The notes: a model not told the origin generated them from the letters alone. Counted from the stretch's first letter, positions 5,926 to 45,016 are shown. The stretch: DNA of 64,000 nt from Candidatus Borrarchaeum weybense (GCA_019057385.1 JAHQJS010000006.1:613038-677037); one strand, 5' to 3'. Translations and numbers: made by a program.

Positions 5926-5981
5926 TTGTTATGACAGTTGTGATAACAAAATAAAGGTTTGGTCCTAAATTGTAATAACAA
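5926..5981. promoter_or_regulatory. Operator array, three TTGTNATNACAA-type boxes
   Basis: TTGTTATGACA, TTGTGATAACAA, TTGTAATAACAA; same layout at 26232-26319 (inverted) and 44941-45016. Confidence 0.8.
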
Positions 5982-20336: not shown

Positions 20337-20426
20337 AAGTAGTGACATTGTTTCTATTAACAAGCTTTGAAGGATGGTGATGTATGGATACGTTAGTAGC
20401 TAAGTCGCTGTGTTCAATCGGGCGCG

Positions 20427-20450
20427 TAGTCGCATAGTCGCATAGTCGCG
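20427..20450 (+). repeat. (TAGTCGCA)x3 octamer array
   Basis: Tandem octamers; also at 21062-21085 and degenerate at 26646-26669. Confidence 0.9.
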
Positions 20451-20527
20451 CAGTTTTTGGACGCACCCACCCCACCAAATAGGACGGGCAAGAGCTATTC
20501 TACTTGTTAAAGACAACGTCAATTGAT

Positions 20528-20600
20528 GGAGCTTATACCATCAACTCAACTCCTGGAGAGCCAACTTATACTTGGGGGGTCACACCCCCCGAGCTCCACC
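20528..20600 (+). ncRNA. tRNA-like element 1 (acceptor stem plus T-arm mimic, no clear D or anticodon arm)
   Basis: GGAGCTT (20528) pairs with GAGCTCC (20591-97), followed by ACC; GGGGG-7 nt-CCCCC arm directly before; tRNA-sized. Confidence 0.6.
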
Positions 20601-20645
20601 CTTAAAAAATTCACTTTTGTATATGGAGCTCATGCTCAGGAGTTT

Positions 20646-20966
20646 ATGAAATTGTATTTGTGTTCTAAATGTGGAACAACTCGCCACACACCCAATTTAT
20701 TTGAAGGTAAACCATACTGTCGTAAGTGTTACAAAAAAGTGATTCAGAAGCCAAAAGGTTGTTCTATCCCTTTAGGGATACCCCCTAAAAATAGAGGTAA
20801 CTATCGAAAAAGTCAGGGTTTACGTAAAAGAAGAATCTGGCGAGTAGTCAGAAATCAATCTGGTGAGATTATAGAAGAAGAGAGAATACCAAACCGCAAA
20901 GGACGTTTTAACCGTCATATCTCTCTAAATATGAAGGATAAACTCACCCCTCAACCCAATCATTAA
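20646..20966 (+). CDS. Zinc-finger protein with basic tail (start revised from 20523)
   Basis: CSKC...PYCRKC; leader motif and AGGAG precede ATG 20646. Confidence 0.7.
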   Translation: MKLYLCSKCGTTRHTPNLFEGKPYCRKCYKKVIQKPKGCSIPLGIPPKNRGNYRKSQGLRKRRIWRVVRNQSGEIIEEERIPNRKGRFNRHISLNMKDKLTPQPNH

Positions 20967-21002
20967 TCTTTTTTTTGTGGAGCTTGGCTCTAAGGTGGCT
21001 AA

Positions 21003-21080
21003 ATGAACCAAAGAGTAATTCTTGAGACCTTACTGAATTTCATTACTCTTGTTGTGGCTATTAGTCGCATAGTCGCATAG
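21003..21080 (+). CDS. 25-aa hydrophobic peptide MNQRVILETLLNFITLVVAISRIVA
   Basis: Preceded by a leader and RBS identical to those of the 23392 gene. Confidence 0.5.
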   Translation: MNQRVILETLLNFITLVVAISRIVA

Positions 21081-21085
21081 TCGCA
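21062..21085 (+). repeat. (TAGTCGCA)x3 octamer array
   Basis: Three exact tandem copies upstream of MCM. Confidence 0.9.
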
Positions 21086-21302
21086 CAAAAAGGAGAGATA
21101 CACCTTGCAAGACAAATTTAATAAGAAAAACGTAACTCTCCGCCTTGTCTTGTGGTATTTTGCAATACACCAAGACGCGAGACTACTAAACTTTGTGGTC
21201 GCGGCGTAATTTGTTCAAGACTACTTAAGTACTTAGGTACATAGGTATCGTCATACCTAAGTAGTCCTCTTTTTTGGAGCTCTAAGGCTCTGGAGTGAAA
21301 TT

Positions 21303-23045
21303 ATGACTGAAGCAATAGAAGAAGCCACAAATCCTGAAAAGGAATGGCTAAAAACTTTAGTTCGAGCGGATTTTGAAAAAACTAAAGAGGATGAAGAACT
21401 TAAACTAAAACCCATAACCTCAGGGATACAATCACTAATCCTTGAATTCTACCAGCGGTTATCCTCGACAGATACACCAGACGAATTCGATCAGTTTTAC
21501 AGTGAAAGACTGAAACAGTATAAAGCAATGCATTTGTTCATCAGTTTCCTTAATGAATATGCGGTTAAATTGGGGTTATCTCCCCGACCAACGGCACCAG
21601 AGTTTTACAGGAATTCACAAGAAGTAGAAAAGTATCTCTTTGAGATTACTGAAGCTACTCTCGGAGAACCACAGACACTTAAAACCTTGCAAGATCAGAT
21701 CAGTGCAAAATATCCCGATCTACTCAGTCAAATCATTAAAAATGAAATTGACAAAACGAACGGGAAATATGAAGATTTTGTCAACAACGAAATGACAGAG
21801 ATTGAGGAGAAAATTGATTTAGGGGTCGAAATAGAACTTGATCCCGTCATCAGTAAACAATTGCAATTAATCGAGGAATCTAAGGGAAAAATTCAGCAAA
21901 TTTCAGCAGAATTAAACAAGATGATTATTCTCGGTGAAACGGTATGGGAATATCTCATCTATGCAATGGTGAGCCCGCACTGCCCACCCTTTTACATCAA
22001 TGGTCTTAAAAAACGTGCTAATTTGCACGTACTTCTGGTGGGCGATATTTCTACAGCAAAGTCAGAAATCATCGACGTTACTGATGAAATAGCCTTTAAG
22101 AGTTTTAAAATAGACGATAGCACACGCGCCGCTATGGAAGGAAAATATACTACTGAAGGAATCGAAGCTGGGGTTATCGACCATGCTAACAATGGCTTGC
22201 TCTGTATTCACGAATTCGATAAAGCCTTGAAGGAGTTTAAATTACTCCGAAGGTGTCTCGATTGCAGAGATTTTACAATTGCGAAAGGCGAGCACATGAA
22301 AATCACTAACATCAACATGACACTTTTCTGTGGAGCCAACCCAACCGATGATTTTTTCCATAAAGAATGTTATCGGGATCAGATCCCCTTTTCAGAGGGG
22401 CTTCTGAGCAGGTTTGATATAACATTGCCCCTCCAATCTACCCCACTACGTAATAACCTCATGCTTGATCGTTTAGACCTCTTTTCCGAAGATAAAATCG
22501 TTGATATTACAAAAACCAAAGAAATCTTAGCAACTTTAATTCATGGCATACAGAAACTCAAAGGCGTTAAAATCGAACAAGAACACCAAAAAATGATAAA
22601 AGAAGTCTTTCGTCTGTATAACATTCGTTTACCACGCCGCCCCTTTGTAATCCTTCGAGACCTCGAAACCATTGCCCGATTTGTCAATGTAATAGCGTCT
22701 GCCAACTTTTATAATAGACAGGTAAAAGACGGCTACGTGTATGCTATAAAAGAGGACATTGAGAAAGCAATTTCCCTATGGGAGGACTTAATGCACCGCC
22801 GCCGACAACTGTACGAAGAAACAGGCGCAAAGAAAGAATTGACAAGCATTGATGACATAATCAAGAAAGAAATCATCATGCACGGTAAAGACCACATTAA
22901 AAGTACGGATCTTTATGAGATAATCGTGGAAAAACTCCATATATGTCACAAAGCGACCTTCTATAGAGCACTAAATCGCATGGAAGCGCAGGGAAAAATA
23001 CAACGTAAAGGCAGGAAAAACGCAACAATCATCCTCAACTCCTAA
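21303..23045 (+). CDS. mcm: MCM-family helicase, divergent
   Basis: HVLLVGDISTAKS (Walker A), LCIHEFDK (Walker B variant), GANP, LLSRFD, RDLE, C-terminal wHTH. Confidence 0.85.
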   Translation: MTEAIEEATNPEKEWLKTLVRADFEKTKEDEELKLKPITSGIQSLILEFYQRLSSTDTPDEFDQFYSERLKQYKAMHLFISFLNEYAVKLGLSPRPTAPEFYRNSQEVEKYLFEITEATLGEPQTLKTLQDQISAKYPDLLSQIIKNEIDKTNGKYEDFVNNEMTEIEEKIDLGVEIELDPVISKQLQLIEESKGKIQQISAELNKMIILGETVWEYLIYAMVSPHCPPFYINGLKKRANLHVLLVGDISTAKSEIIDVTDEIAFKSFKIDDSTRAAMEGKYTTEGIEAGVIDHANNGLLCIHEFDKALKEFKLLRRCLDCRDFTIAKGEHMKITNINMTLFCGANPTDDFFHKECYRDQIPFSEGLLSRFDITLPLQSTPLRNNLMLDRLDLFSEDKIVDITKTKEILATLIHGIQKLKGVKIEQEHQKMIKEVFRLYNIRLPRRPFVILRDLETIARFVNVIASANFYNRQVKDGYVYAIKEDIEKAISLWEDLMHRRRQLYEETGAKKELTSIDDIIKKEIIMHGKDHIKSTDLYEIIVEKLHICHKATFYRALNRMEAQGKIQRKGRKNATIILNS

Positions 23046-23140
23046 TTTTTTTCTCATTACTTAAGTACTTGTAAATGGAGCTTACTTCCAGGAGTAATAT
23101 TTTTAACATAGTCACTACAAAAGTATATACGGTGTTTATA

Positions 23141-23356
23141 TTGATCGAAAAAAAGAAAGTTTATAGATCAGGCAACTCAAAAGCCGTCCTCATACCCGCC
23201 TCTACATTTAAAGCGATGGAGAAACCCGATAAGGTATCAGTTGCTTTTAACGAGGTTATGATAGTTTTTAATGAGGATATGGACATTGAGATGATTAAAT
23301 CTGACATCTTAAACCTTCTCAAGTCAATAGAACTGCGTTATGGGAAGGTTACATAA
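23141..23356 (+). CDS. AbrB/MazE-like protein (start revised from 23075)
   Basis: KKVYRSGNSKAVLIPA. Confidence 0.75.
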   Translation: MIEKKKVYRSGNSKAVLIPASTFKAMEKPDKVSVAFNEVMIVFNEDMDIEMIKSDILNLLKSIELRYGKVT

Positions 23357-23391
23357 TTCTTTTTTGTGGAGCTTGGCTCTAAGGTGGATTT

Positions 23392-23646
23392 ATGGTAATT
23401 AAAGGCGAAGCGCAAACCATGCACCAAGCATGGCAAAAAGCCTTTGTGAATCTCGAAGAAACTATTAAAGAACGAGAAGTCGAACTTAAAAGACTACAAA
23501 CGGCTAAAAAAGAATGTCAGAAAAAACTCACAAAGGCGAATAAACAAACGGTTCTTGAACTAATTGAGACACGAATTGATTACTTACAGAAAAAACTCGA
23601 AAGCGAGAGAAGTATGCTCAATAGTTTAGAACCTTACAACTCTTAA
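23392..23646 (+). CDS. Coiled-coil hypothetical protein
   Basis: Leader motif and RBS; heptad pattern. Confidence 0.75.
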   Translation: MVIKGEAQTMHQAWQKAFVNLEETIKEREVELKRLQTAKKECQKKLTKANKQTVLELIETRIDYLQKKLESERSMLNSLEPYNS

Positions 23647-23692
23647 CCTTTTTTTCCCTTCTTGTGGAGCTATAAGGCTCTGGAGTGAAAAC

Positions 23693-24184
23693 ATGACCTT
23701 AGAATACAAAGGGTTTTTTAAAAACGTAAACTACGAACCCGAAAAGGGAGATTGGATCGAGGTTTTTGCAAGCGATTGGAACAAAGACTATTGGGCATTC
23801 TACGCATACATTCCATTCGAGAACTATGAACAAGGAATTCAAGTGATCAATGACTTGATCGGCGAATTGAATTGGCGAGACGGGGACGTATATATTGAGT
23901 TAATTAATATGAGTCCTGGTCTTGAAAAATTGTATAACAAACTCTACGATGACGGCTATTTTGCTCATTGGTCGGCTCTTAATCCCGACAAATGGCGCGA
24001 ATATTTAGAGGAAATCGAAGAGGAAGAAGCCGAAGAATTTTCCGACTTCAAAGATCAATATTTTAGGAAAAACTGTCAAACAAAATCAATTGAAGAGTGC
24101 GATGAAACGTCTTGCAATGAATCTTGTATAGATGAATGGGCGTATCCTCAACGACCAGATCCATCCCTGTATTACGACCAATAA
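23693..24184 (+). CDS. Acidic hypothetical protein with Cys-rich tail
   Basis: Leader motif and RBS. Confidence 0.75.
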   Translation: MTLEYKGFFKNVNYEPEKGDWIEVFASDWNKDYWAFYAYIPFENYEQGIQVINDLIGELNWRDGDVYIELINMSPGLEKLYNKLYDDGYFAHWSALNPDKWREYLEEIEEEEAEEFSDFKDQYFRKNCQTKSIEECDETSCNESCIDEWAYPQRPDPSLYYDQ

Positions 24185-24229
24185 ATCTCCACCTTTTTTT
24201 TCTTTCATGGAGCTAACAAAGGCTCAGGA

Positions 24230-24619
24230 GTGTTTACTATGAATGTCGAAATCAATTCTTTCGCGGATCTTATATACGTCCTATCTGAATTCGCAAAAGT
24301 TGATAAAAACTACGAATGGCACGTCAGTGAAGACGATGAACGTGTGTATTTAACACATTTCAGATGTGAAACTTCAGAAGCACCAGAATATTTTGTAAAT
24401 GACAGGAAACAAGACTTCAAAAAGTTGTGGGACACCGCATATCAGTACACCTTACGGTGTGCGACTTCTAAGGAAGAACCGAGTTTTGAGGCTCTTTGTA
24501 ATGCGATAAAGAAACAGAACATCGAAATCAGAACGTCGACGGATGAGGAACGGCTTTCCTATGTAGATCGAATCACTGAAATGGACGCTAATATGGAAGA
24601 AGAACTTGCTATGGAGTGA
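24230..24619 (+). CDS. Acidic hypothetical protein
   Basis: Leader motif and RBS; likely start at ATG 24239. Confidence 0.75.
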   Translation: MFTMNVEINSFADLIYVLSEFAKVDKNYEWHVSEDDERVYLTHFRCETSEAPEYFVNDRKQDFKKLWDTAYQYTLRCATSKEEPSFEALCNAIKKQNIEIRTSTDEERLSYVDRITEMDANMEEELAME

Positions 24620-24641
24620 AGATCAGAATTAGGGTGTTTAC

Positions 24642-24776
24642 ATGACAGAAGAACGCGAATTTAGTGTATTTGTCATCTTAAGAAAGATGGCGACAGACCG
24701 CCAAGACGCTTTAGATAAAGTAGATCAGGACATACTCGATAAAGATTTCGAAATTTACGATGTCATTGAATCTTAA
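24642..24776 (+). CDS. 44-aa acidic protein MTEEREFSVFVILRK...
   Basis: GGGTG RBS, open frame, fills the gap between neighbours. Confidence 0.55.
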   Translation: MTEEREFSVFVILRKMATDRQDALDKVDQDILDKDFEIYDVIES

Positions 24777-24869
24777 ACGAGACTACTTAGGTAATTAGGT
24801 ACTTAGGTAATTCCAAACATCTCCTATTTTTTTATGTGTGGAGCTTCAAAAGGCTCTGGAGTGAACAAT

Positions 24870-25814
24870 ATGGTACAAATCAAATTTGATAGTGCAAAAC
24901 TTTGGTCTTCTCTTGTGAAGGGTGTAAATGCTCTCATAAAAGAAGCCGAATTTGAGACCACTAAAGAAGGACTACATCTTCGAGCAATTGATGACGCGCA
25001 CATTGCCATGATCGACTTGGACATACCAAGCGATTCTATGAAAGAATACTCTTTTACTCTTCATGACAAAGAGGCAGACTTCGCGAAATTCGGCATAAAT
25101 ATTACTGAAATGGCTACAATAATGCGACGTATCCCCATTGGAGAAAAATTGACGCTGACATTGGATTCACAAAAAAGCAAATTTCATGTCGTAGCAGACT
25201 CTTTATACACAAAACGACGATTTTCAATTCCTCTCCTAGGTTCAACTTCCGCTGAAGACATTCCTGTACCGAAGATAGACTTTACAACAAAAATCAAACT
25301 TAAAGCAAAGTACCTCAAAGAGGCAATTAAAGACGCCGCTGTGATGGGTGACTATTTAAAACTCAAGACGACTGCCGATAAATTTTCTTTATGGGCAGAA
25401 GGCGATACAGGAAACGTCAGCATAGACTATGAATATGGAGAATCAATCTCTCTTGAGAAACGCGGTGACGCTGTTGGAATTTATGCTTTAAAGTACTTAG
25501 ACGATATGACCGATCCTATCCCTGGCGAATCTGAGGTAAGTATTGAGTTCTCAAATGATATGCCTCTGAAACTTACGTGGATGTTAAACGGCTCAAAACT
25601 AGATTACTACTTAGCTCCACGTATTCCACCCTCGGATGAAGAACCACCAAAAAAAGAGGAAAAGGAACAAGAAAAAACTAAGGATGACACAGAAGAGGAA
25701 AAAGAAACGCACGAAGAAACTAAGGAATTCCCTTGTGACGAGTGCGGAAAGACCTTTACTAGCCAAAGAGGACTTAACACACACATGCGCGTACATAAAG
25801 ACTCTGATGAATAG
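24870..25814 (+). CDS. pcn: PCNA sliding clamp fused to an acidic linker and C2H2 zinc finger
   Basis: GLHLRAIDDAHIAMIDL, YALKYL, DMPLKL, YYLAPRI, then CDECGKTFTSQRGLNTHMRVH; start revised from 24834. Confidence 0.92.
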   Translation: MVQIKFDSAKLWSSLVKGVNALIKEAEFETTKEGLHLRAIDDAHIAMIDLDIPSDSMKEYSFTLHDKEADFAKFGINITEMATIMRRIPIGEKLTLTLDSQKSKFHVVADSLYTKRRFSIPLLGSTSAEDIPVPKIDFTTKIKLKAKYLKEAIKDAAVMGDYLKLKTTADKFSLWAEGDTGNVSIDYEYGESISLEKRGDAVGIYALKYLDDMTDPIPGESEVSIEFSNDMPLKLTWMLNGSKLDYYLAPRIPPSDEEPPKKEEKEQEKTKDDTEEEKETHEETKEFPCDECGKTFTSQRGLNTHMRVHKDSDE

Positions 25815-25883
25815 TCCTTCCTCTATTTTTTCTCGTTACTTAAGTAATTTTTTAAGGAGCTTCTGACTCCAGGGTGTATTTAC

Positions 25884-26168
25884 ATGAACGGATGGAAAAA
25901 AATATGGGATACCGAAGAAAAAGGACTCTACAAAGACAATTCTTTCTCGTTCGTTGATTTTGAGAAAGAGGACTTATATCTATTGATACAAAAGTCTGGT
26001 CCGAGTGGTTGGTATCTTTATTTATTTGAACACGGTAGCCCAAGAACTGTTGGATGGGCTACTACAAAAGAAAAAGCCTTAGAGATAGCTAAGTTTATGA
26101 TGGAAACAGATAATTTCCCACCAGCACATAAGTACTTCAATGCGGATCTTGAACTTTGTAAGTCCTAA
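25884..26168 (+). CDS. Hypothetical protein
   Basis: Leader motif and RBS. Confidence 0.75.
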   Translation: MNGWKKIWDTEEKGLYKDNSFSFVDFEKEDLYLLIQKSGPSGWYLYLFEHGSPRTVGWATTKEKALEIAKFMMETDNFPPAHKYFNADLELCKS

Positions 26169-26231
26169 CATCCTTTTTTTCTAATTCTGTCTGCAAAGTG
26201 CTGCAGGGGCTCAAACCTCCAGGATCAGAAT

Positions 26232-26319
26232 TTGTTATTACAATTCAGGCCCTTACTTTCATTTTGTTATCACATTTGTAATAACATTCTACACCCGGCA
26301 ACTTATTTTGTGATGACAA
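26232..26319. promoter_or_regulatory. Operator array, four TTGTNATNACAA-type boxes upstream of the operon 2 promoter
   Basis: Boxes at 26232, 26264, 26276, 26308; reverse complement matches the 5926-5981 layout. Confidence 0.8.
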
Positions 26320-26340
26320 ATTATAACCTAATAACTGAGA

Positions 26341-26353
26341 CACAAAATATATA
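26341..26353 (+). promoter_or_regulatory. Probable promoter of operon 2 (CACAAAATATATA)
   Basis: Identical to the 13-mer at 20321. Confidence 0.65.
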
Positions 26354-26376
26354 ATTGAGTTCTTATAATGTAGTTC

Positions 26377-26625
26377 ATGAGACACACACGAAATACATCT
26401 ACAAGGTCGCACCCTTGCTGACCTATTATGTCTCAGAAAAGGAAGGGTCTCCTGCCGCGGGAGTTTGAAACGTCACTCACTTCCCTCCGTGAGTAAGCGG
26501 GCGTGGTCACGACTCGAAATGTGGGTAAAAGTCGTGTAGTGAAGTCAGTGAAACAGAAAACTCATAAAAAGAAAAAACCCTCCTGAGGTAGAAGAACGGG
26601 GGTTCGATTCCCCCAAGCTCCTCCC
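26377..26625 (+). ncRNA. Structured leader RNA ending in a canonical T-arm and acceptor 3' strand (tRNA-like element 2)
   Basis: GGGGG-TTCGATT-CCCCC (26598-614) then AAGCTCC (26615-21); hairpins TGAGACA/TGTCTCA, ACTCAC/GTGAGT, CACGACT/AGTCGTG; possible cis 5' strand GGAGTTT at 26460. Confidence 0.65.
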
Positions 26626-26748
26626 TCAAAAATTAAAGACTAGCGTAGCCGCATAGTCATATAGTCGCAAATATTATTTATACGTGGAGCTTAATAAATT
26701 TAATGGAACGGGAGTTTTTACTTCAGAACTACTTAGGTAGTGCGAAAT

Positions 26749-27690
26749 ATGTCCTTAGTGCACTTTTTGCAGAAAAACCCTGACTACCTCTCAGGTGTCA
26801 GAAGAATCCTCGAATATGAAGAGGACCATAAAGACGATCAGTATTTCAAGGACTTAGGGTGGTCTTGGGATGATATTAGACTTTCAGGACCACACTTGAA
26901 TCAGTTAGTTTTGGCGGGAATAATTCAAATTGTGTATAAATCCCGCAAGAATCGCGGCTATTTGTTAGTAGATCGAGAAAAAACAAAGAAAGAGATCGAA
27001 CTATACGAAGCACAATTAAATTATAGTCCAGAGACAGACGAAGAGATTGAATTCTCAGAATCTATCTTTGATGACATTATAGGCTATAACGATGTGAAAA
27101 AACTCTTTAAACGGGCGTTGCGGAGTGAAGAACCGATACATATCCTCATGATTGGACCACCCGCCAGCGCAAAGAGTATGTTTCTTTTTTGTCTTGCACG
27201 TTTAGATGGGGCTCATTATTCTCTTGGCTCATCGAGTACCAAAAGCGGATTATCTGATTTTCTTATTGAGTATTCTCCGCGCATATTATTGATCGACGAG
27301 TTGGACAAAATGAACACACCTGACTACTCCGTACTGCTCTCCTTATGTGAGAGTGGACTTGTGGGAGAAACAAAATACAAGAGAGTACGAAGTGTTCAGT
27401 TGAAATGTTCTGTATTCGCGGCTGCCAATGATGACAAAAAAATTCCGCGAGAAGTTAAAAGTCGATTTATTGCACTTCGATTTAAGGAGTATTCAAAAGC
27501 AGATTTTATAGAAACTGCCGTAAAACTTCTTATGCGGGAAGGAAAAGACCATGACTTAGCCACCTATATCGCTGAAAAAGTATGGCACTTTAAAAACCGC
27601 GATATAAGAGACTGCATACAGATAAGCCGCTTAGGAGATACACAAGAAGAGATCGACTCAACCCTGAAAACACTTCAGAAGTATTCGTGA
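26749..27690 (+). CDS. AAA+ ATPase (MCM/RuvB-like) with N-terminal wHTH
   Basis: HILMIGPPASAKS, LLIDELDKM, AAAN, SRF. Confidence 0.85.
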   Translation: MSLVHFLQKNPDYLSGVRRILEYEEDHKDDQYFKDLGWSWDDIRLSGPHLNQLVLAGIIQIVYKSRKNRGYLLVDREKTKKEIELYEAQLNYSPETDEEIEFSESIFDDIIGYNDVKKLFKRALRSEEPIHILMIGPPASAKSMFLFCLARLDGAHYSLGSSSTKSGLSDFLIEYSPRILLIDELDKMNTPDYSVLLSLCESGLVGETKYKRVRSVQLKCSVFAAANDDKKIPREVKSRFIALRFKEYSKADFIETAVKLLMREGKDHDLATYIAEKVWHFKNRDIRDCIQISRLGDTQEEIDSTLKTLQKYS

Positions 27691-27742
27691 GTACCTAAGT
27701 ACTCATGTTTGTTTTATTTTTTCTTTTCATGGAGCTTCAATC

Positions 27743-29461
27743 ATGAAGGCTCTACCACAAACAGGAGGAATTCAAATTTCGTGGATACATGAATTTTTTG
27801 AGAAATATCGTGCCCAAATAACACCCCTCAGTATCACACATTTCAATATCGAGGATTTCCCGCAACTTTTTACTGCAAAAGTAAATGGGAAAACTCTTCC
27901 TGGATATTTTGAATTCGTAATTGAGTATGATATTGGATCGGGGTTATGTCCTTTTGAACCACAAAAAACAGACTCTGAACAACTTACAACAGATGAAGAC
28001 AGCTCTGAACAAATTACAATGACCGACAAACTACGTCAAGAATATGCGAAGTTTATACAGTCAGACGAAGTTTATGAACTACCTGTTGATCCCGTAGAAA
28101 CGCTGAACTTTATCCGCTATTTATTCCGCGAATATAAGGGGCTTTTTGTTCTTTATGATTGCGAAACAATAGCACCTGACAGTTCGGCGGCACACATGAC
28201 GCTACAGGATCGTCAATGTTCGCAACTACTTAAAAATTTAGCATTAGACCACAAAATTCGCAAAAAAGGAAGCGCAATCATAGTGACTGCCGAGAGGCTT
28301 GAGGATATTGCCCAAAAAGTCCGAAAGGTAGCTAATATCATTGAAATTCCGCTTCCTGACGATACATCACGAAAGAAAGTGTTTGAACAAGCAACTGAAA
28401 AAGTCGCTTATAATCCTAAGGACTTGGATCAATGGGTAGTCGGATCGAAAGGTTTGACAATCAAAGAACTTAAGTCGATCATAGTTGAACTTTATCAGAA
28501 AGACACCACAATTATGTTAGGTGACTTCTATGATCAAAAAGCGAAAAAGTTAGAGAAGTACGACATGGTCTCTTTAGAGAATCCAAAGTTCGGATTCGAG
28601 GGCTTAGTTCTACCAGACTACTTAAGTACTTTCCTTAAGACCTTCATAATAAAGCCATATCAACAAGCTATGCAAATTCGTCCAAAAGGGATCTTGTTCA
28701 CAGGACCACCAGGCACAGGGAAATCAGTGTTGGCGGAAGTAATAGCCTACGAACTTAACAGACCGTTGATTACCGTTGACGCAAGTAATTTACTCTCTCA
28801 ATATGTCGGGGAGAGTGAGAAACGGACTGCTCAATTTTTCCGAGTAATCAGACAATTTGGTGAGGCAGTTGTCCTTATTGATGAAGCCGAAGAATTACTC
28901 AGCGAGCGATCTACAGCAGTCAACACTGATAGCGGTGTGACATCCAATTTGAAGGCAACCTTTCTTCATGAAATGGCGAGAGATCATGGAGTATTGTTTA
29001 TACTCAATACTAATTATCCAATGAAACTCGATGCTGCCATGGTTCGTGTGGGCAGAATTAATTACAAAATACCACTTTTGCCACCATTTACCGCTGAAGA
29101 ACGGGCTAAAATACTTCGTGTGGTGTTAGATGTTCAATTAAAAGTCCCATACGATAAGAACATAGATTTTGAAGCAATTGCCGCAACACTTCAGGGATAC
29201 ACAGGCGCAGAATTACGAGAATTAGCAAGTGTAGCATGGGCTATTGCTTGTGTTGAAAATGACAAAGAAAAAACCGAGCAGGAAGATTTTGATGTCGCAA
29301 AAACGGTGTTTCTACCCGATACGCGAAAGATCAAAGAAATGACCGCCGACGCACTTTCAGTAGTGAATGACAAAAGGCTTTTGCCGCCACAACTCCACAA
29401 AGAAAAAGAAAAGAAGGTTCAAGAGTTTCAAGAAGGCACTTGGGATTCACTCTTTCAATAA
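27743..29461 (+). CDS. AAA ATPase, Ycf46/Cdc48-like (degenerate N-terminal plus active C-terminal AAA)
   Basis: GILFTGPPGTGKS, YVGESEK, VLIDEAE, LDAAMVRVGR; true start may be ATT 27776. Confidence 0.88.
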   Translation: MKALPQTGGIQISWIHEFFEKYRAQITPLSITHFNIEDFPQLFTAKVNGKTLPGYFEFVIEYDIGSGLCPFEPQKTDSEQLTTDEDSSEQITMTDKLRQEYAKFIQSDEVYELPVDPVETLNFIRYLFREYKGLFVLYDCETIAPDSSAAHMTLQDRQCSQLLKNLALDHKIRKKGSAIIVTAERLEDIAQKVRKVANIIEIPLPDDTSRKKVFEQATEKVAYNPKDLDQWVVGSKGLTIKELKSIIVELYQKDTTIMLGDFYDQKAKKLEKYDMVSLENPKFGFEGLVLPDYLSTFLKTFIIKPYQQAMQIRPKGILFTGPPGTGKSVLAEVIAYELNRPLITVDASNLLSQYVGESEKRTAQFFRVIRQFGEAVVLIDEAEELLSERSTAVNTDSGVTSNLKATFLHEMARDHGVLFILNTNYPMKLDAAMVRVGRINYKIPLLPPFTAEERAKILRVVLDVQLKVPYDKNIDFEAIAATLQGYTGAELRELASVAWAIACVENDKEKTEQEDFDVAKTVFLPDTRKIKEMTADALSVVNDKRLLPPQLHKEKEKKVQEFQEGTWDSLFQ

Positions 29462-29558
29462 TTTCCTCTTTTTTTTCTTTATCACTACTTAGGTAATTGT
29501 GTTCATTTTTAGAGGGGCTTCTTCTCCAGGAAGCTACTAACTTTAATGAGGAAAAAAG

Positions 29559-30059
29559 TTGAGTAAATATCTCGAAGTAAAAACTCAATTCAAAAGTATG
29601 GCACATCTTATCGAGGCATTAACATCAATCTATGGCTACGGTACAGTCAAAGCGGGTAAAAATTTACCTCTCAAGGATTATCTTGGCAATATACGACCAG
29701 AAAAGGCAGATATCGTAGTACCAAGACGCTTCATTCATCCAGCGTCAAACGATCTTGGATTCAAGAAAAATGAAAACGGTGTTTATACCATGATTATCTC
29801 AGAATTTGACGAAGTAGTAGCATCAATGACTCCCCAAAGACTCGCTAATGAACTTAATTTGTATGGTCCGCCATATTCGACTCAATGCAAAGGAATTCCG
29901 AATACTGAGATAAAGAAACAATACAATCTCAGTTTTATCAGAGACTTTGCCAAGAAAAACCGTTGGAATCTGTCATTGACAGACAAAGAAACTCATTTTG
30001 AAGTTCGTTTGAAACGAAGAGTGACTGTTTCCGCAAAAGCAAGGAGGTCTGCCAGATGA
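29559..30059 (+). CDS. DUF1257 (Ycf35)-like protein
   Basis: MSKYLEVKTQFK...LIEAL...ADIVV...NDLGFKKNENGVY; follows a Ycf46-like ATPase. Confidence 0.75.
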   Translation: MSKYLEVKTQFKSMAHLIEALTSIYGYGTVKAGKNLPLKDYLGNIRPEKADIVVPRRFIHPASNDLGFKKNENGVYTMIISEFDEVVASMTPQRLANELNLYGPPYSTQCKGIPNTEIKKQYNLSFIRDFAKKNRWNLSLTDKETHFEVRLKRRVTVSAKARRSAR

Positions 30060-30262
30060 CACAAGAAGAGCAGATCTTCTTCAAAATCGACAAAAAGACA
30101 GGTAACTTGACAATCGAAGGCAAAGGATTCGAAGGACCGATCTGTGAAGACGTTTTAAAGTCATTTGAAGAGTTAGGAGAGATAACACATGACAAAAGAA
30201 CACCAGAGTACTATAAAAAACCTCGACAAGTCCAAACAACCCGCCAACGACTTAGACATTAA
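30056..30262 (+). CDS. DUF2997-like protein
   Basis: GKGFEGPIC...EELG...TPEYY. Confidence 0.75.
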   Translation: MTQEEQIFFKIDKKTGNLTIEGKGFEGPICEDVLKSFEELGEITHDKRTPEYYKKPRQVQTTRQRLRH

Positions 30263-30448
30263 AATAAAAACAATAATTCGCATTGAGGACGATGGAACAG
30301 TCATTTTTTGCGATATTCCAACTGAGTTAATCCCTTTAGCCTTAGCATTGCGGGGCGATTAATTTCTCTTTTTTTTCTTATTATTTAGGTAATTCGTTAG
30401 GATGGAGCTTCTTCGTTGAGAGGCTACCAACTTCAGGAGAAAACCAAG

Positions 30449-31591
30449 ATGTCAGATACGAAAAACATTTCCATTTCTGTTAATGAAATGGATGTTCTTC
30501 TGAATGGTCAACGAATAGATCTTCATATCTCGTCAGGAGATATGTTTAGTCAATCTAAGTTGAATAAATTGCTCTACAAAGGATATAAAAGGCTTTCATC
30601 AACAATGGTGAAAACTTATACAAACGGCGATACTCTCACGCTTGATTCAATCAAGACAAAAGCACATGAACTAAGGCAGAAATACTGTTTCAGGTTATTT
30701 GAAAACAGCGTTGAAGACAACAGAGGGGCTGTATATTTTTGTCCCGAGTCTCTGACCGAAAAGTTGCGCAAAGACCTACGGGAACTCAAAAAGGAATATA
30801 AAAAGACACTTGAGTTTATTGGCAAAATCAGAGATACTTTGAATGAAGAAATCTTTAGTTTTTACAGTGAGCATTGTATTTATTGCGGGCGACCTGTGAA
30901 AGAAGAAAAGGCGGGAAAGATCATAAAATTGCGATGCACAGGCGATGATTCGCATATATTCACTAAAAAACTCATGGATCATTGGTTAGAACAAAATAAG
31001 TCGGTGATAGAAGTACCCTCGTTAGAGGAGATTAAAGCGCGAAAGAGATTTTATTATCGCTTCAGCAAATATTTTTTCCCCACTGAAGAACTCACTGACA
31101 ACTTAGTTGATACACAACTTAAACAGCAAAAGCAAAAAATGTATCAGGCAGAATTATCTACATGCAAGTCTGCAATAAAAAAACAGTTATGGCAAAAGAT
31201 GAAGTTAATCCTTGAATACATAGATGATCGGCTTTCAAAAAGAGAAAAACTTCGTGCAGACCAACTTGATAAAATCAAGAATGATTTAGATGCATTAGAA
31301 GAACTAAATAAAAGCACCTTCAAAATTCCTCAGATTTCTAATTCTATAGACAATCTCAATGCACAGATTGCAGACAAAGAAGCTGCACTGAAAGTTTTGA
31401 CAAACATCTCGAAGAACATCGAAAAGAAAATCAAAGAAGCTGAAGAAAATGAAAATATTGCGATGGATCTAATAGACAAATTAGAGGACATCGACATAGA
31501 AATTGGTACAGAAACGCTTGAACTAGAACAAAAAGAAGCAGTTGAAATTGAACTTGGTGACCAGAAAGAAGAGATTTTTTCTACAAATTAG
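30449..31591 (+). CDS. Coiled-coil protein with zinc-ribbon insert (possibly DUF3150-like)
   Basis: GAVYFCPE, CIYC...C..H; start revised to the ATG after AGGAG. Confidence 0.7.
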   Translation: MSDTKNISISVNEMDVLLNGQRIDLHISSGDMFSQSKLNKLLYKGYKRLSSTMVKTYTNGDTLTLDSIKTKAHELRQKYCFRLFENSVEDNRGAVYFCPESLTEKLRKDLRELKKEYKKTLEFIGKIRDTLNEEIFSFYSEHCIYCGRPVKEEKAGKIIKLRCTGDDSHIFTKKLMDHWLEQNKSVIEVPSLEEIKARKRFYYRFSKYFFPTEELTDNLVDTQLKQQKQKMYQAELSTCKSAIKKQLWQKMKLILEYIDDRLSKREKLRADQLDKIKNDLDALEELNKSTFKIPQISNSIDNLNAQIADKEAALKVLTNISKNIEKKIKEAEENENIAMDLIDKLEDIDIEIGTETLELEQKEAVEIELGDQKEEIFSTN

Positions 31592-31682
31592 TTTAAATCA
31601 AATCTTAGTACCTAGGTACTAAGAAATATTTTTCAATTTTTTATTTTTATGTGGGGCTTCATGGCTCAGGGGTGAACAAACT

Positions 31683-31880
31683 ATGCCTATAGATTCATGG
31701 CAAGAGTTCATTGAAACGATCAAAGGGCTTCTAATTGGTTGCGGTATAGATATTATTATTGTGTCTTTCTATATTCCAGAAGTCCGCAATGATCTCAATT
31801 ATTGGGTTCTCACACCAATACTCATCATCTTAGACTTTCTTGTGCGCTTTGTGAGAACCTTTTTTATTTTTTTATTATGA
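31683..31880 (+). CDS. Small two-TM protein
   Basis: Leader motif and GGGGTG RBS; hydrophobic. Confidence 0.7.
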   Translation: MPIDSWQEFIETIKGLLIGCGIDIIIVSFYIPEVRNDLNYWVLTPILIILDFLVRFVRTFFIFLL

Positions 31881-31930
31881 GGGGCTTCTTCTCCAGGAAG
31901 AACGCTACCAACTTTTTGTGAGGGATTAAT

Positions 31931-32221
31931 ATAAGACAACGAAAAAAGATTCAACTTCTGAGGGTCTCTCCAGTCACACGAATGAGACTTGTCAAAAAGT
32001 TCTTGAGAGAAAACGCGCCTACCGCGTTCACAGCACAAGAGTTAGCAATGGAGTTCAATGTTTCCGTGTCGCTAATGAGGAATATTTTAGTTCCACTTTT
32101 CATGGATAACGATGAAATCGAACGCTTAAGTGAGAAACGCTTTTACAAGTATAAATGCGTTGAAAAAACGACAGAAGGACAAGAACCCGAAACACAAGAA
32201 GAAGTAATCACGACTACTTAA
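31931..32221 (+). CDS. Small winged-helix protein (probable ATA start; ATG at 31982)
   Basis: FTAQELAMEFNVSVSLMRNIL; stop codon lies inside TACTTAAGTA. Confidence 0.7.
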   Translation: MRQRKKIQLLRVSPVTRMRLVKKFLRENAPTAFTAQELAMEFNVSVSLMRNILVPLFMDNDEIERLSEKRFYKYKCVEKTTEGQEPETQEEVITTT

Positions 32222-32547
32222 GTACTGACGTAAGTTCCACCCGAAAGATAAGTTCGTGTGGAAATAGACGTATATCTTTTAGCACGTTCGCAGAAATAAT
32301 ATTCTCCTTAGTTTTTATGGGCGAGTGGACTCATACCTAACTCCCTATTATTTCGACTGGAGACCTATTTTTTAGGTTTTGTGTATTACTTTTTAAGTAT
32401 CAAGAACTAATCCCTTATTTTTTCTTTTTCTCATCGGTTGTTAATTGCATTTTGGGAGATCGTAGAGGAGAGAGGAGATAAGAGAGTAAAATAAGTGAGG
32501 GGCTTTTCCCATTGTGGGATTGGCTACTAAAATCAGGAGGAAACGCT

Positions 32548-32838
32548 ATGGCAACACAAATTGAAGTTCCAAAATCCATGAATATATGGATGCGTATAGA
32601 CGTTGCGTGTTGTGCAGACTTAACGAAAGAAGAAAACAAGTGTGCAATGTGCGGAGAATCTGATAAACGTCTCGCGGTGTTCGAGTTTAGGACAACGAGG
32701 CATCATGGACACATTGACGACAAAGGATCTTCCTGGAATATTCCTTCGAGGGGCTTAATCTGTGAAGGATGTTCTAACGAGATCGAAATAGAGATCGTAC
32801 AAGTGCTCAAGAAGTATCTGTGGCAAAAGGAGGACTAA
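32548..32838 (+). CDS. Zinc-finger protein
   Basis: CAMC...ICEGC; AGGAGG RBS. Confidence 0.7.
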   Translation: MATQIEVPKSMNIWMRIDVACCADLTKEENKCAMCGESDKRLAVFEFRTTRHHGHIDDKGSSWNIPSRGLICEGCSNEIEIEIVQVLKKYLWQKED

Positions 32839-33389
32839 CATTGCCGATGATGAGTTTTACTGAATACAAGTTGCTACCAAATCTACTGCTGAGAACGAAA
32901 TGTCAAACCATTCGACCAGAACGACTGAAATGGGACTTACATGTGGGTGACTTGGTCCATAATTACTGGGAGGTACGTCGCTCACTTGAAACAAAAATAA
33001 TTGCCGGGATTCCACACTTCTTAGGATTCTCACAGATTACATCGTTGTCCAAAAAACGAATTAAAGACATGGATGATGAAATAGCGAAGAAAGATGGCTT
33101 CAGTTCTTACAATGAGATGATAGAGTGGTTTACAAACAAGTACAAAAGAAGGTTTGGCGAACTCTACTTATTAGACATCCCTTTTCAGATTATTGAGTTC
33201 GACTGGTTACACGTCTTCATACCTGAATGGCAACACTATACGAGAGAAAAAATCTGGGAACTAAGACGCAAACACGTCAAGAAGAATAAGAAAGGCGGAG
33301 GCTACGTCTTTGTAGAAGAACCTACGCTGGAGGTCAAGATCAACAAAAGACCCACGCCATATAGCGGCGGCTACCCCATTCCGTTTTAA
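32820..33389 (+). CDS. ASCH (PUA-like) domain protein
   Basis: KCQTIR...VGD...IAKKDGFSSYNEMIEWF. Confidence 0.8.
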   Translation: MAKGGLTLPMMSFTEYKLLPNLLLRTKCQTIRPERLKWDLHVGDLVHNYWEVRRSLETKIIAGIPHFLGFSQITSLSKKRIKDMDDEIAKKDGFSSYNEMIEWFTNKYKRRFGELYLLDIPFQIIEFDWLHVFIPEWQHYTREKIWELRRKHVKKNKKGGGYVFVEEPTLEVKINKRPTPYSGGYPIPF

Positions 33390-33402
33390 AGTGGTGAACA
33401 CA

Positions 33403-33564
33403 ATGCGACAAAGACGAATAACCGAACTATATGCCACCCCTATCCAAGTAAAAGAACCATGCCCCATTTGTGGGGGTCGATTCATACCTGGATTTGCAAT
33501 GTGGTGGCCTCATACCCCACAAATACTGATTTGTACCTCGTGTTGTTTCATAAAGAACCTATAA
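33403..33564 (+). CDS. 53-aa zinc-ribbon protein
   Basis: GGTGA RBS; CPICGG...CTSC. Confidence 0.6.
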   Translation: MRQRRITELYATPIQVKEPCPICGGRFIPGFAMWWPHTPQILICTSCCFIKNL

Positions 33565-33676
33565 TCCCTTTTTTTATTTTTTAATGAATATTCGTGACTA
33601 CTTAGGTAATTTCGTTCATTTTTAGAGGGGCTTCTTCTCCAGGAAGCTACTAATTTTCCCAGGAGGAAAATACACG

Positions 33677-35488
33677 GTGACTAAGATAAACGAGTCATTT
33701 AGACAAACGATTCGTAGGGCTATAAAAATAAAAATAGAGACAGAGAAAATCGACAAAGAAGAAGGCTTACCACAGACATTTGACAAAGTGCCTTACAAGT
33801 TCTTAAATGCGCTTTTAGACCTAAAACTGCCACCAGACCGACCTTTCATCTGGAAAGAAAACGAATCGAATTTACATTTGTACCCTTTCTTATTTGAGAA
33901 AGGACAGTTATCCATTGCTGGCCTTCGATGTCTGACGCTTATTGATGAATACATGAACTGTAAGACCGTACAGAAACCTAAAAAACTCAGAACTATTAAA
34001 ACAAGTCTTTTTTATAATATGTTCAAACCACTACTAAGTAGATTTGGACTGCTAACACCAAAACGGCTGACTACGAAGTGGACAGAAAATCAGTACAGTG
34101 CTGTGACGGGTACACTGAGCCAATTAGTTATGCTTGGTGCTTTAGGGATCAACTATGATGACATGATGATTAATAAGGACACCGACGTTAAATACCGCCT
34201 AGACTATCCTATATTTCGAGAGAAATACAAGGATAACGTAGTAAAGTACACTAAATTAACGGGGAGAAATTTTTGTGTGCTTACACCAGAGCACCTACAG
34301 AAGCCTTCGACACGGCAACCATTCAAAATACCAATAGTCTTCCTAGAAAAACGCGGTCAGTATGAAAACGCAATCAGCATAAGCAATCTATTCTCAGTCA
34401 GCATGTTTGCTACCAAAGGCATGTCACCGACCACTTTCCTGTGTCATCTTAATGAATACTTAGATGACCAGTATGACCATGTGCTGTTAGTAATTAGTGA
34501 CTACGACCCCAGTGGTGAAAAAGACATACCAAATTCATTGAAAAAACGCGCTGAAATTCTTGAAATGCCTATCAGTGAAGTTAAAAGGATAGGTATTTTC
34601 AGAGATCAAATAAGCGATAAAGAATATCTGGAAAAGAGAGTTCTTATACCTCTCTCAAAGAAAAAATGGATAGAAGAAAAAGCCATTGAGACTGAAGAAA
34701 TTGTTGAAAATAAGAAAACACATCTCTATGGGTACGGACTTCAAATGGATGCACTAGGCGAAGAACGGTTGCGGAAAATAGCAGCCGAAGGAGTACAAGA
34801 ATATTTATCACAGGAACTATATGTAGACTTCATTAAACAACAACAAAGAGATGAATTTAATGCATGGGAAGTTGTAAGTGGCATCGCAACATATATTTAC
34901 AACGTCGATCCTGTCATAGTTAATTTTGAAAGACAAATCACAGGAATCAAACACAGAATCTACAATCTGACAGACGAAAAAGATGAGAAGACATTAGATA
35001 TTAGATTAGCAGTGGAGAGCATAGAAGACGAACTACAACGACTTAAAGATGATTATTACTCAAAAATAGAACGTCTTAATGAACTTGCAGATGAAAGAAC
35101 TGCTGATTTAACTGTAGACATAGAAGTGCTGCGTGAAAAGAAACAAGAAAGAGTAGTGATGTCTGAAGAACATAAATACGACCTACAGGAACGTCTAAAA
35201 ATGATTGTAAAAACGCTTGCAAATATAGACGGGTATGATGACCGTATATGTGTAAAATCTATGGTAGAACAGGCTGTCAAAGACAATGAAACATTTAATC
35301 ATGGTCTTAAAATCGTAGACTTATATCCAAAACTAAAAAGTGACATTTCCAGAGACTTCAATCATCCTAACATCTGTCCATTTTGTAATACCGTATCTAA
35401 CTGTTATCTTGTGATAGACGGAAAACAAATACGGTATTGTGAAGACTGTGATACTGAAATCATAAAACTTAGTGATCTGTTAGCCTAA
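33677..35488 (+). CDS. Topo VI-A/JetD-like TOPRIM protein with coiled coil and C-terminal zinc ribbon
   Basis: VFLEK, TKG, SDYDPSG, KRIGI, QMDAL; CPFC...CEDC. Confidence 0.78.
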   Translation: MTKINESFRQTIRRAIKIKIETEKIDKEEGLPQTFDKVPYKFLNALLDLKLPPDRPFIWKENESNLHLYPFLFEKGQLSIAGLRCLTLIDEYMNCKTVQKPKKLRTIKTSLFYNMFKPLLSRFGLLTPKRLTTKWTENQYSAVTGTLSQLVMLGALGINYDDMMINKDTDVKYRLDYPIFREKYKDNVVKYTKLTGRNFCVLTPEHLQKPSTRQPFKIPIVFLEKRGQYENAISISNLFSVSMFATKGMSPTTFLCHLNEYLDDQYDHVLLVISDYDPSGEKDIPNSLKKRAEILEMPISEVKRIGIFRDQISDKEYLEKRVLIPLSKKKWIEEKAIETEEIVENKKTHLYGYGLQMDALGEERLRKIAAEGVQEYLSQELYVDFIKQQQRDEFNAWEVVSGIATYIYNVDPVIVNFERQITGIKHRIYNLTDEKDEKTLDIRLAVESIEDELQRLKDDYYSKIERLNELADERTADLTVDIEVLREKKQERVVMSEEHKYDLQERLKMIVKTLANIDGYDDRICVKSMVEQAVKDNETFNHGLKIVDLYPKLKSDISRDFNHPNICPFCNTVSNCYLVIDGKQIRYCEDCDTEIIKLSDLLA

Positions 35489-35624
35489 GTACACAGATCA
35501 CATTTTGTATTTCCTTCTTTTTTTCCATATCTAACTACCTAAGTATTTTTGATTATTTTTGGAGGGGCTTATCTCCTGCTCTACAATTACAGGAGAAGGT
35601 CACTAATCTCCCAGGAGGAATACT

Positions 35625-35987
35625 ATGATCGTATGTGATGGCTGTGATGGCGAAATAGACATCACAGTTGAAAGATTCGTAGAAGAACTACAACCTACAG
35701 GCGAAGGAGAAAAAATGTGGCATGACCATTGTTATATCAAAGTTAAACCGAAAGCAAAACGAGGTAATATCATGCTTGTCAGAGATTATAGATTAAAATG
35801 GAGACAAATAGAACTTTGTACCAAAGAAAAGGAAGGATACTTCCCTTTATGGGCATCTCCTACACTTATGGGTATTGCAAAGCGATTACATAAATTAGCA
35901 GGATATACATGGCTAACAACTGAAAAATTTATAGAAACTGCGCTAATAGAAGGCTTGACATATTTCAAAAATAAATATGCTCAATAA
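35625..35987 (+). CDS. Zinc-binding protein
   Basis: CDGC...HDHC; leader motif and RBS. Confidence 0.7.
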   Translation: MIVCDGCDGEIDITVERFVEELQPTGEGEKMWHDHCYIKVKPKAKRGNIMLVRDYRLKWRQIELCTKEKEGYFPLWASPTLMGIAKRLHKLAGYTWLTTEKFIETALIEGLTYFKNKYAQ

Positions 35988-44940: not shown

Positions 44941-45016
44941 TTGTTATTACAAGTGTAATAACAAAGTAGTAAGTTGTGATAACGAAATAGTTCCTGGTCC
45001 AGAATTGTTATCACAA
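44941..45016. promoter_or_regulatory. Operator array, four TTGTNATNACAA-type boxes
   Basis: Boxes at 44941, 44953, 44974, 45005; shares the TGGTCC-AATTGT spacer with 5926-5981. Confidence 0.8.

Follow-up and report, generated by a model that had tools for sequence, protein, structure and literature searches.

Repeated stem-loops between consecutive genes are known from the early region of phage T7, whose RNase III sites are intercistronic processing hairpins of phage early operons, and processing of this type leaves a hairpin on the mRNA end. In bacteria, the ompA-type 5' hairpin is a 5'-terminal stem-loop that acts as a stabiliser. To our knowledge, almost nothing is known about gene expression in the mobile elements of Asgard archaea. 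Here we describe a repeated leader unit in a stretch of 64,000 nucleotides from Candidatus Borrarchaeum weybense (the window; C6:613038-677037 in a genome of 4.18 Mb and eight contigs), which, as judged from its sequence, carries a mobile element of ~60 kb integrated in the archaeal chromosome. Occurrence of the unit is non-random and restricted to this element. Like the T7 sites, it is a stem-loop repeated between consecutive early genes, just upstream of each ribosome-binding site; like the ompA-type hairpin, it places a stem-loop at the start of the leader, followed by an exposed Shine-Dalgarno (SD) sequence, the position of the 5' end being inferred here. A literature search returned no description of such leaders.

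Nineteen intergenic units on the + strand, each anchored on a GGRGCU(U) box, lie between 20.6 and 35.6 kb of the window (Table 1), and by our own gene count ~17 of the ~24 + strand genes of this block are preceded by one. An earlier note on the same DNA had held that most genes here follow one ordered unit of T-tract, palindrome, hairpin and ribosome-binding site. The 19 units do share the order T-run, GGRGCU(U) box opening a stem-loop, SD and start codon; the palindrome drops out of the unit, as it lies within ~80 nt upstream of the start in only ~11 of the 19, at variable distance, and occurs throughout the element. The motif GGRGCTT is found 21 times in the window against 9.7 +/- 3.3 times in shuffles, and 17 of the 21 copies are on the + strand within 20.5-35.6 kb. 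Positions -16 to -3 relative to the box are T-rich, and a run of at least five T no more than 25 nt upstream of the box is present in 13 of the 19 units compared to 110 of 1555 (7%) other genomic GGRGCT sites. Units with a long spacer carry a T-run behind the stop codon and another directly next to the box, and the palindrome separates the two. A loose pattern of the whole grammar matched 44 times genome-wide, including 16 matches inside the 15-kb block.

Two classes of unit can be told apart. The short class consists of GGRGCU, a loop of 1-11 nt and GGCUC(U), directly followed by GGAGUG or AGGUGG and the start codon; it occupies 20.6-26 kb. In the long class, GGRGCUU opens a longer stem-loop, after which come a CUACYAA box, a gap of 4-10 nt, CAGGAGG and the start codon; this class occupies 27.7-35.6 kb, where one further short unit stands at 31653. 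The earlier note had proposed a covariance-model search: in the 4.18-Mb genome the short-class model found 11 sites at E <= 0.013, all of them in the element (next E = 0.35), and in 150 genomes of the same phylum it gave single weak matches (23-27 bits) and no arrays, those looked at being coding sequence or a terminator-like hairpin. The 15 matches returned by a pattern scan of viral contigs were all attributable to chance (other GC content, no arrays).

Table 1. Leader units, anti-leaders and palindromes of the element; positions count from the first nucleotide of the window, and the anchor is the start of the GGRGCU(U) box.
Feature	Position	Strand	Anchor	Composition and context
Palindrome TACYTARGTA, 40 copies	4113-62103			Extended consensus ACTACYTARGTAGT; spread over the whole element
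Anti-leader 1	20546-20601	+		Heads operon 1; UCAACUCC (SD mimic partner), UGG, AGAGCC, 11 nt, hairpin GGGGGG-UCACA-CCCCCC (20573-90), GAGCUCC (20591-97), ACCC
Leader unit 1	20613-20647	+	20625	GGAGCUC, 4-bp local stem, SD AGGAG, ATG 20645; cis-paired to anti-leader 1
Leader unit 2	20967-21005	+	20979	Short class: T8, GGAGCUUGGCUCU, AAGGUGG, ATG; first 28 nt equal unit 5; only an ORF of ~24 codons downstream
Leader unit 3	21215-21305	+	21276	Before MCM-like helicase gene; palindromes 21222, 21230, 21254; T6, GGAGCU-CUAA-GGCUCU, GGAGUG, ATG 21303
Leader unit 4	23046-23143	+	23077	T7 right after stop codon, palindrome 23058, GGAGCUU, CCAGGAGU; start likely TTG 23141; alternative ATG 23075 overlaps box
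Leader unit 5	23358-23394	+	23368	Duplicate of unit 2
Leader unit 6	23647-23695	+	23666	Short class, 6-bp stem, z = -2.4
Leader unit 7	24192-24241	+	24209	Short class
Leader unit 8	24780-24873	+	24840	Before PCNA-zinc-finger gene; two palindromes, T7, GGAGCUU-CAAAA-GGCUCU, GGAGUG
Leader unit 9	25824-25886	+	25856	T6, palindrome 25837, second T6, GGAGCUU...CUCC, AGGGUG
Leader-like unit 10	26174-26240	+	26206	GGGGCUC...CUCCAGGAUC; opens a ~480-nt stretch, 26206-26685, with no + strand ORF of at least 50 codons listed
Anti-leader 2	26570-26625	+		Heads operon 2; CCUCCUGA-GGUAG, AAGAAC, canonical T-arm GGGGG-UUCGAUU-CCCCC (26597-26614), AAGCUCC, UCCC
Leader unit 11	26672-26751	+	26686	GGAGCUU pairs perfectly with 26615-21; UUUUUACUUCAG (26716-27) pairs with 26581-92; palindrome 26730; ATG 26749
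Leader unit 12	27709-27778	+	27731	Hybrid: GGAGCUU-loop-GGCUCU, CUACC, CAGGAGG; start either ATG 27743 in the leader loop (GGAGCUU as SD) or in-frame AUU 27776 after CAGGAGG
Leader unit 13	29466-29561	+	29514	Long class: T8, palindrome 29486, T5, GGGGCUU stem-loop, CUACUAA, GAGG, TTG 29559
Leader unit 14	30360-30451	+	30404	Long class; own helix UUCUU/GAGAG, CUACCAA, CAGGAG
Leader unit 15	31626-31678	+	31653	Short class within operon 2: GGGGCUU-CAU-GGCUC, GGGGUGA
Leader unit 16	31861-31930	+	31881	Long class, CUACCAA; start codon uncertain (ATG 31982)
Leader unit 17	32499-32551	+	32499	Long class, inner helix UCCCA/UGGGA; without T-run
Leader unit 18	33568-33679	+	33627	Long class, duplicate of unit 13 (shared 61-nt module); before a 603-aa gene
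Leader unit 19	35511-35627	+	35564	Long class, inner helix UCUCCUG/CAGGAGA, then UCACUAA, CAGGAGG

The local GGRGCU hairpin with variable loops and G-U pairs, which had been proposed from inspection of the DNA, was confirmed and is confined to the sense strand. Of the 18 leaders folded, 15 have as their minimum-energy fold a stem-loop that starts at nucleotide 1-3 of the box, and the end of this stem-loop is separated from the SD by 0-1 nt in the short class and by 5-15 nt in the long class. All 19 leaders fold better in the + than in the - sense (summed energies -155 and -105.6 kcal/mol), and 30 of the 157 pairs in the + sense folds are G-U. Control sets of 19 length-matched coding windows from the block reached -70 +/- 12 kcal/mol with a strand difference of 1.4 +/- 11.4, and at most 14 of the 19 windows folded better in the + sense; the leader set thus folds about twice as well as coding sequence of the same length. 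Sense-strand specificity argues that the stem-loop acts in RNA. The long-class helix persists with at least four unrelated inner sequences (CUUC/GAAG, UUCUU/GAGAG, UCCCA/UGGGA, UCUCCUG/CAGGAGA), and for every helix length it is followed by the CUACYAA box, 21-37 nt from the start of the GGRGCU(U) box. Conservation of a helix despite changes in sequence and length indicates that the structure of the RNA is what is recognised here, rather than a promoter of fixed spacing. The spacing of the arms (1-11 nt), the G-U pairs in the stems and the order of boxes independent of helix length likewise speak against dimer binding to a DNA palindrome and against a fixed TATA-to-start geometry.

The leader module is a real, element-specific RNA module of the sense strand that is combined with a probable DNA operator and with T-runs, and it is not represented in Rfam: with Rfam 15 the whole window yielded only a T-arm fragment (E <= 1), and local searches stayed at or below 22.4 bits, below every cut-off. 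Tentatively, and as quite possible rather than probable, we read it as the standard 5' leader of the early mRNAs of the element. The standardised expression unit would begin with a pyrimidine-rich stretch and a T-run after the previous stop codon, sometimes continue with the element-wide operator TACYTARGTA and a second T-run, and then open the RNA leader with GGRGCU(U) as the 5' arm of the stem-loop, to which the long class adds the CUACYAA box; an SD of the YCAGGRG type would close it 5-10 nt before the start codon. The stem-loop would thus come to lie at or near the 5' end of the mRNA of each cistron, made either by initiation or by cleavage at the U-run, where it could shield the 5' end and keep the SD in a constant context, so that all early genes would share one signal for translation start. 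In each of the two operons, the first leader would be trapped in a long cis hairpin, formed with an antisense segment (anti-leader) upstream of it and covering the 5' box; in operon 1 this hairpin would also cover the SD, and in operon 2 a second cis helix would form upstream of the SD. The leader-like unit that opens the stretch 26206-26685 hints that the module may serve the transcript and not translation alone.

Several observations weigh against this reading. A TATA box at fixed distance upstream of the box was not found in the 19 units, and units 1 and 11 carry A/T-rich TATA-like boxes 5-20 nt upstream of it, so that a canonical start site would fall downstream of the box. Oligo-T normally terminates archaeal transcription, which poses a problem for the transcription of downstream cistrons. 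Runs of at least six T occur 20 times in the intergenic sequence (2.7 kb) and 9 times in the coding sequence (12.7 kb), and the latter are not depleted (9 against 5.0 +/- 2.1 after codon shuffling), so that a terminator role of the T-runs is putative. Single hairpins are weak (-3 to -9 kcal/mol, z mostly -0.3 to -1.7). As to the structural covariation that the earlier note had asked for, the long class keeps its helix while the sequence changes, and the arms of the short stem are simply conserved without compensatory changes (88% of cells pair, no more than in shuffles); taken alone, the short stem could be two conserved boxes. Finally, the 19 leaders are paralogues in one element and hence non-independent observations.

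The same T-rich block, locked at -16 to -3 from the box, can be taken for part of a promoter acting at the DNA level. The abutting T-run would then be TATA-like, GGRGCU...GGCUC would be a promoter-proximal or repressor site between TATA and start, transcription would begin near the SD in the short class or near CUACYAA in the long class, and the anti-leaders would be divergent minus-strand copies of the promoter unit. In units 1 and 11 the block does resemble a true TATA box (TTTGTATAT, TTATTTATA), a T-run after every gene suits separate transcription units, and at both control regions two units diverge around an A/T-rich, iteron-bearing spacer. The conserved downstream boxes lie at a distance of 20-37 nt from the T-run, as compared to ~24-27 nt from TATA centre to start in archaeal promoters with a B recognition element and TATA box; for CUACYAA alone it is 21-37 nt, unlike a fixed TATA-to-start spacing. 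A start ~26 nt after the T-run would fall beyond the SD in three short units, leaving their stems untranscribed, at odds with the RNA-like properties of these stems, that is their markedly better folding in the + sense with 30 G-U pairs; the long-class helix, conserved while its sequence and length change, also speaks against a promoter. Nor is there an open reading frame (ORF) downstream of the putative minus-strand units. On balance we regard the promoter explanation as fairly unlikely.

If the module is a 5' leader, it is a variant of the repeated intercistronic or 5'-UTR stem-loops introduced above and is itself new. It differs from the T7 sites in its stems, which are too short for classical RNase III, in its position 3' of a U-run and in the invariant 7-mer of its 5' arm. 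RNase III sites comprise ~20 bp or more of near-continuous double-stranded RNA, and the stems of the 17 simple leaders measure 4-12 bp; only the two cis folds of leader with anti-leader approach that length, and they are interrupted. Three ORFs of the host carry an RNase III domain (Pfam PF14622, 49-100 bits; C6:818487-818837, C7:633265-633537 and C4:397487-397756). Cleavage of double-stranded RNA thus appears to be available, and the two long leader/anti-leader duplexes could be substrates. From the ompA-type hairpin the module differs in being repeated ~19 times with a fixed box in one archaeal element.

The palindrome TACYTARGTA is a module separate from the leader. Its 40 copies in the window (0.36 expected by chance) make up 40 of the 48 genomic sites, and 36 of the 40 are intergenic though ~75% of the element is coding. 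They lie 0-80 nt upstream of start codons on either strand, including both sides of divergent genes, with no fixed distance to the box or to the start codon. A role as an RNA hairpin was rejected, since the palindrome leaves no loop and so cannot fold as RNA, and since its position relative to box and start codon varies. It is probably a DNA operator for a dimeric DNA-binding protein encoded by the element. Lying between the host ilvC gene (996-1973) and an integrase gene, the 40 copies delimit the integrated element of ~60 kb. The integrase (62309-63484, minus strand) is tyrosine-recombinase-like, with a weak match to Phage_integrase, and is the only one found.

Both duplications of whole units reported earlier were reproduced: 20971-21005 and 23360-23394 are identical over their first 28 nt, and 29484-29544 and 33597-33657 are 95% identical over 61 nt. 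The duplicated modules stand before unrelated genes, and their identity includes spacer positions that are otherwise unconserved. It stops at the module edges and leaves the genes themselves outside, a pattern which points to recent copying or gene conversion of the leader module and not of the genes. The near-identical pairs before unrelated genes, shared spacers included, are also what recommends the idea that the units are recombination sites, through which genes could be swapped as cassettes by site-specific or homologous recombination. Exclusion of the genes from the identity argues against it, as does the presence of an SD in a unit that is strand-specific in an RNA-like way; the one indel checked, between the related loci L052 and L063, had no clear boundary at a leader motif. 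Integron attC sites resemble the leader units in being repeated, imperfect, strand-biased hairpin units between genes. The leader units differ in lying upstream of the gene, in including the SD and in lacking RYYYAAC/GTTRRRY or other attC-like cores; their arms are GGRGCU and GGCUC(U)/AAGC, and they measure 13-45 nt and not 55-141 nt. An integron integrase with attI adjoining the array was not found, the sole integrase being 27 kb away. We consider exchange of cassettes very improbable.

An anti-leader stands at the head of each operon. It carries sequence antisense to three elements of that operon's own leader class: the 5' box, the second box (GGCUCU or CUAC) and the SD. The reverse complement of anti-leader 1 reads like a short-class leader and that of anti-leader 2 reads GGAGCUU-hairpin-CUACC-UCAGGAGG, i.e. 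as a long-class leader. AAGCUCC, which follows the T-arm of anti-leader 2, is the exact complement of GGAGCUU and forms a G3-U pair with GGGGCUU; GAGCUCC of anti-leader 1 is the exact complement of GGAGCUC, and the seventh pair of this acceptor-like helix compensates between the two sites (G-C vs A-U). The earlier note had suggested that the local hairpin competes with pairing to a tRNA-like half. The complementarity to the box is indeed exact, and competition for the same nucleotides holds for the long class, where the base of the local stem (GCUU:AAGC) uses the nucleotides that would pair with the anti-leader, so that the two pairings are mutually exclusive.

In cis, the region 20520-20650 folds at -47.8 kcal/mol (z = -5.8), with 20551-56 paired to the SD at 20638-43 and 20591-97 paired to 20625-31. 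The fold of 26565-26755 is less marked (z = -1.8): it keeps the 12-bp helix and the T-arm, and the AAGCUCC:GGAGCUU helix is absent from the minimum-energy structure. Either tRNA-like half can also close in cis, its partner being GGAG(C/U)UU upstream or the leader that comes next. The leader-like unit at 26206 opens a stretch of ~420 nt that ends in the T-arm segment (26206-26625), and a tRNA-like fold of 163 nt is possible over 26460-26622 through GGAGUUU:AAGCUCC, no better than shuffles (z = -0.2). ARAGORN found no tRNA gene in the window, in which only the T-arm 26597-26614 matches Rfam (E = 1.8e-5 in a local search). The possibility that the T-arm half is the attachment-site copy of a host tRNA, left as an integration scar, was rejected for this assembly: BLAST of 26181-26740 against the genome returned no second copy, and no host tRNA ends in NAGCYCC after its T-arm.

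The order T-arm, 7-nt 3' acceptor strand, spacer and complementary 5' strand is shared with permuted transfer-messenger RNA (tmRNA) precursors (RF04321) and with external guide sequences (EGS) for RNase P, and a second helix with the target is shared with three-quarter EGS designs. This order accounts for the weak matches of the permuted-tmRNA model, 21.1 bits for anti-leader 1 and 18.6 bits for anti-leader 2 at a cut-off of 47. The tails of the anti-leaders, ACCC and UCCC, differ from the 3' RCCA of an EGS. We know of no natural EGS system. When co-folded with either anti-leader, most leaders adopt a tRNA-like topology of two or three helices in which the inner hairpin of the leader takes the position of the D-arm, and in silico a 7-bp acceptor-like helix forms with the guide strand directly after the T-arm, as in an EGS. 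Mean binding is -12.8 kcal/mol compared to -7.1 +/- 3.8 for 300 SD-bearing host leaders, and at the second site alone -14.2 compared to -10.6 +/- 3.6 for 547 host leaders, figures that overstate the case since the leaders are paralogous. Leaders of operon 1 bind anti-leader 1 at -13.8 and anti-leader 2 at -10.2, those of operon 2 at -12.2 and -15.8, so that each anti-leader fits its own operon better.

These co-folds would suit a riboregulator in which the anti-leader at the operon head pairs with the leaders of the operon at two or three boxes, in cis for the first and in trans for the others. The modelled complex would be tRNA-shaped, made up of the acceptor-like helix, the leader hairpin as D-arm, a helix covering the SD, and the variable loop and T-arm of the anti-leader, and it might either hide the SD or direct host RNase P to cleave at the junction of U-run and G1. 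The perfect complements with their compensating seventh pair, the two-site binding above that of host leaders, the match of each anti-leader to the leader class of its operon and the canonical T-arm 26597-26614 are in keeping with it, and the host encodes RNase P RNA (208 bits). An inverted local copy of a leader that acts in cis only would, however, explain the complementarity equally well, and both anti-leaders can be fully occupied in cis. Their tails are not RCCA, the 5-nt loop of anti-leader 1 is not a T-loop, the acceptor-like helix alone has only 7 bp, and the own stem of a long-class leader is as stable as the trans duplex. We hold such a riboregulator to be improbable, and we think it quite unlikely that a tRNA-arm anti-leader controls a whole viral or plasmid regulon by binding the first leader in cis and ~17 others in trans, so as to mask the SD or recruit RNase P. 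If true, the trans anti-leader would be the first natural equivalent known to us of RNase P targeting by external guides. The matched anti-leader of each operon is the most interesting lead.

Homologues of the MCM-like protein were not found in viral contigs or species-representative genomes, and sixty related genomes yielded only cellular MCMs with 26-29% identity. Homologues with 31-41% identity in a protein search and 29-41% in a contig search led to 52 MCM-related metagenome loci, distant relatives that carry a different stereotyped leader; 62 distinct instances were collected (L027-L084; e.g. L047:4792-4851, L044:6340-6398, L029:1332-1383). It opens with a hairpin of 5-6 bp whose loop (UUCAnnA or GUCACA) resembles a T-loop; an anti-SD strand (CCUCUG, CACCUG, CUCCUG) follows directly, then a loop often starting with RCCY-AAA, the SD (CAGAGG, CAGGUG, CAGGAG) and AUG. 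The first hairpin is stacked on the helix that pairs the anti-SD strand with the SD. This hairpin, which played no part in selecting the instances, covaries at 5 of 5 pairs: 85.5% are paired compared to 35-49% with a slid partner, and none of 500 shuffles reached the score. The loci have no match in Rfam 15, and the leader looks like an undescribed family of cis-regulatory RNAs.

Homology of the element leader to that of its relatives was considered and rejected: the model of the relatives' leader (R1) had its best match in the window at E = 0.84, the region 20569-20611 reached 8.8 bits (E = 3.8), and nothing significant was found in the host genome. Both designs set a structured leader before many early genes, with the first hairpin directly before the translation signals, and the 12-mer GGGGTCACACCC of anti-leader 1 recurs in one of the relatives' hairpins. 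They differ in that the relatives' hairpin is followed by an anti-SD strand pairing in cis with the SD, and only 6-7 of the 62 instances have a T-run. As the leaders of the relatives are structured and covary strongly, structured leaders appear to be a trait of the family, the GGRGCUU design being so far unique to this element. One element would thus combine a single standard RNA leader for ~19 replication genes, an antisense segment per operon and an element-wide operator. Together, the leaders of the element and of its relatives are concrete, testable cis-regulatory RNAs that would reveal how this group punctuates and translates its polycistronic transcripts.

As to gene content, the + strand block of 20.6-36 kb encodes an MCM-like helicase, two AAA+ proteins, a PCNA-C2H2 zinc finger fusion, DUF1257 and ASCH proteins and proteins of unknown kind, and is, by these genes, the replication ("early") block of the element. 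The PCNA homologue (24834-25814) has the C2H2 zinc finger fused to its C-terminus at residues 299-323. A putative gene from TTG 23141 (23141-23356) we take by eye to be AbrB/SpoVT-like; its product and the winged-helix tail of the MCM-like protein are candidates for binding TACYTARGTA. An 8-bp iteron, TAGTCGCA, forms three clusters (20419-20460, 21054-21095 and 26646-26671), each adjoining an anti-leader or a promoter-like region; the clusters may be a replication origin or an operator, and similar repeats, CATAGTCTCATAGTC, are found beside the MCM gene in the relatives L033, L044 and L054. A second palindrome family, TTGTTATnACAnnTGTnATAACAA, has three intergenic sites in the element (26232-26290, 5939-5981 and 44942-44965) and may be the operator of another regulator. 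In the early block of the relative L027, the sequence 9368-9478 can be read as a tRNA gene interrupted by a long insert (GCCGGAG...D-arm...insert...T-arm-CUCCGGC-U-CCA), a gene that was missed by ARAGORN, at a position analogous to the RNA region at 26.4-26.6 kb of the window.

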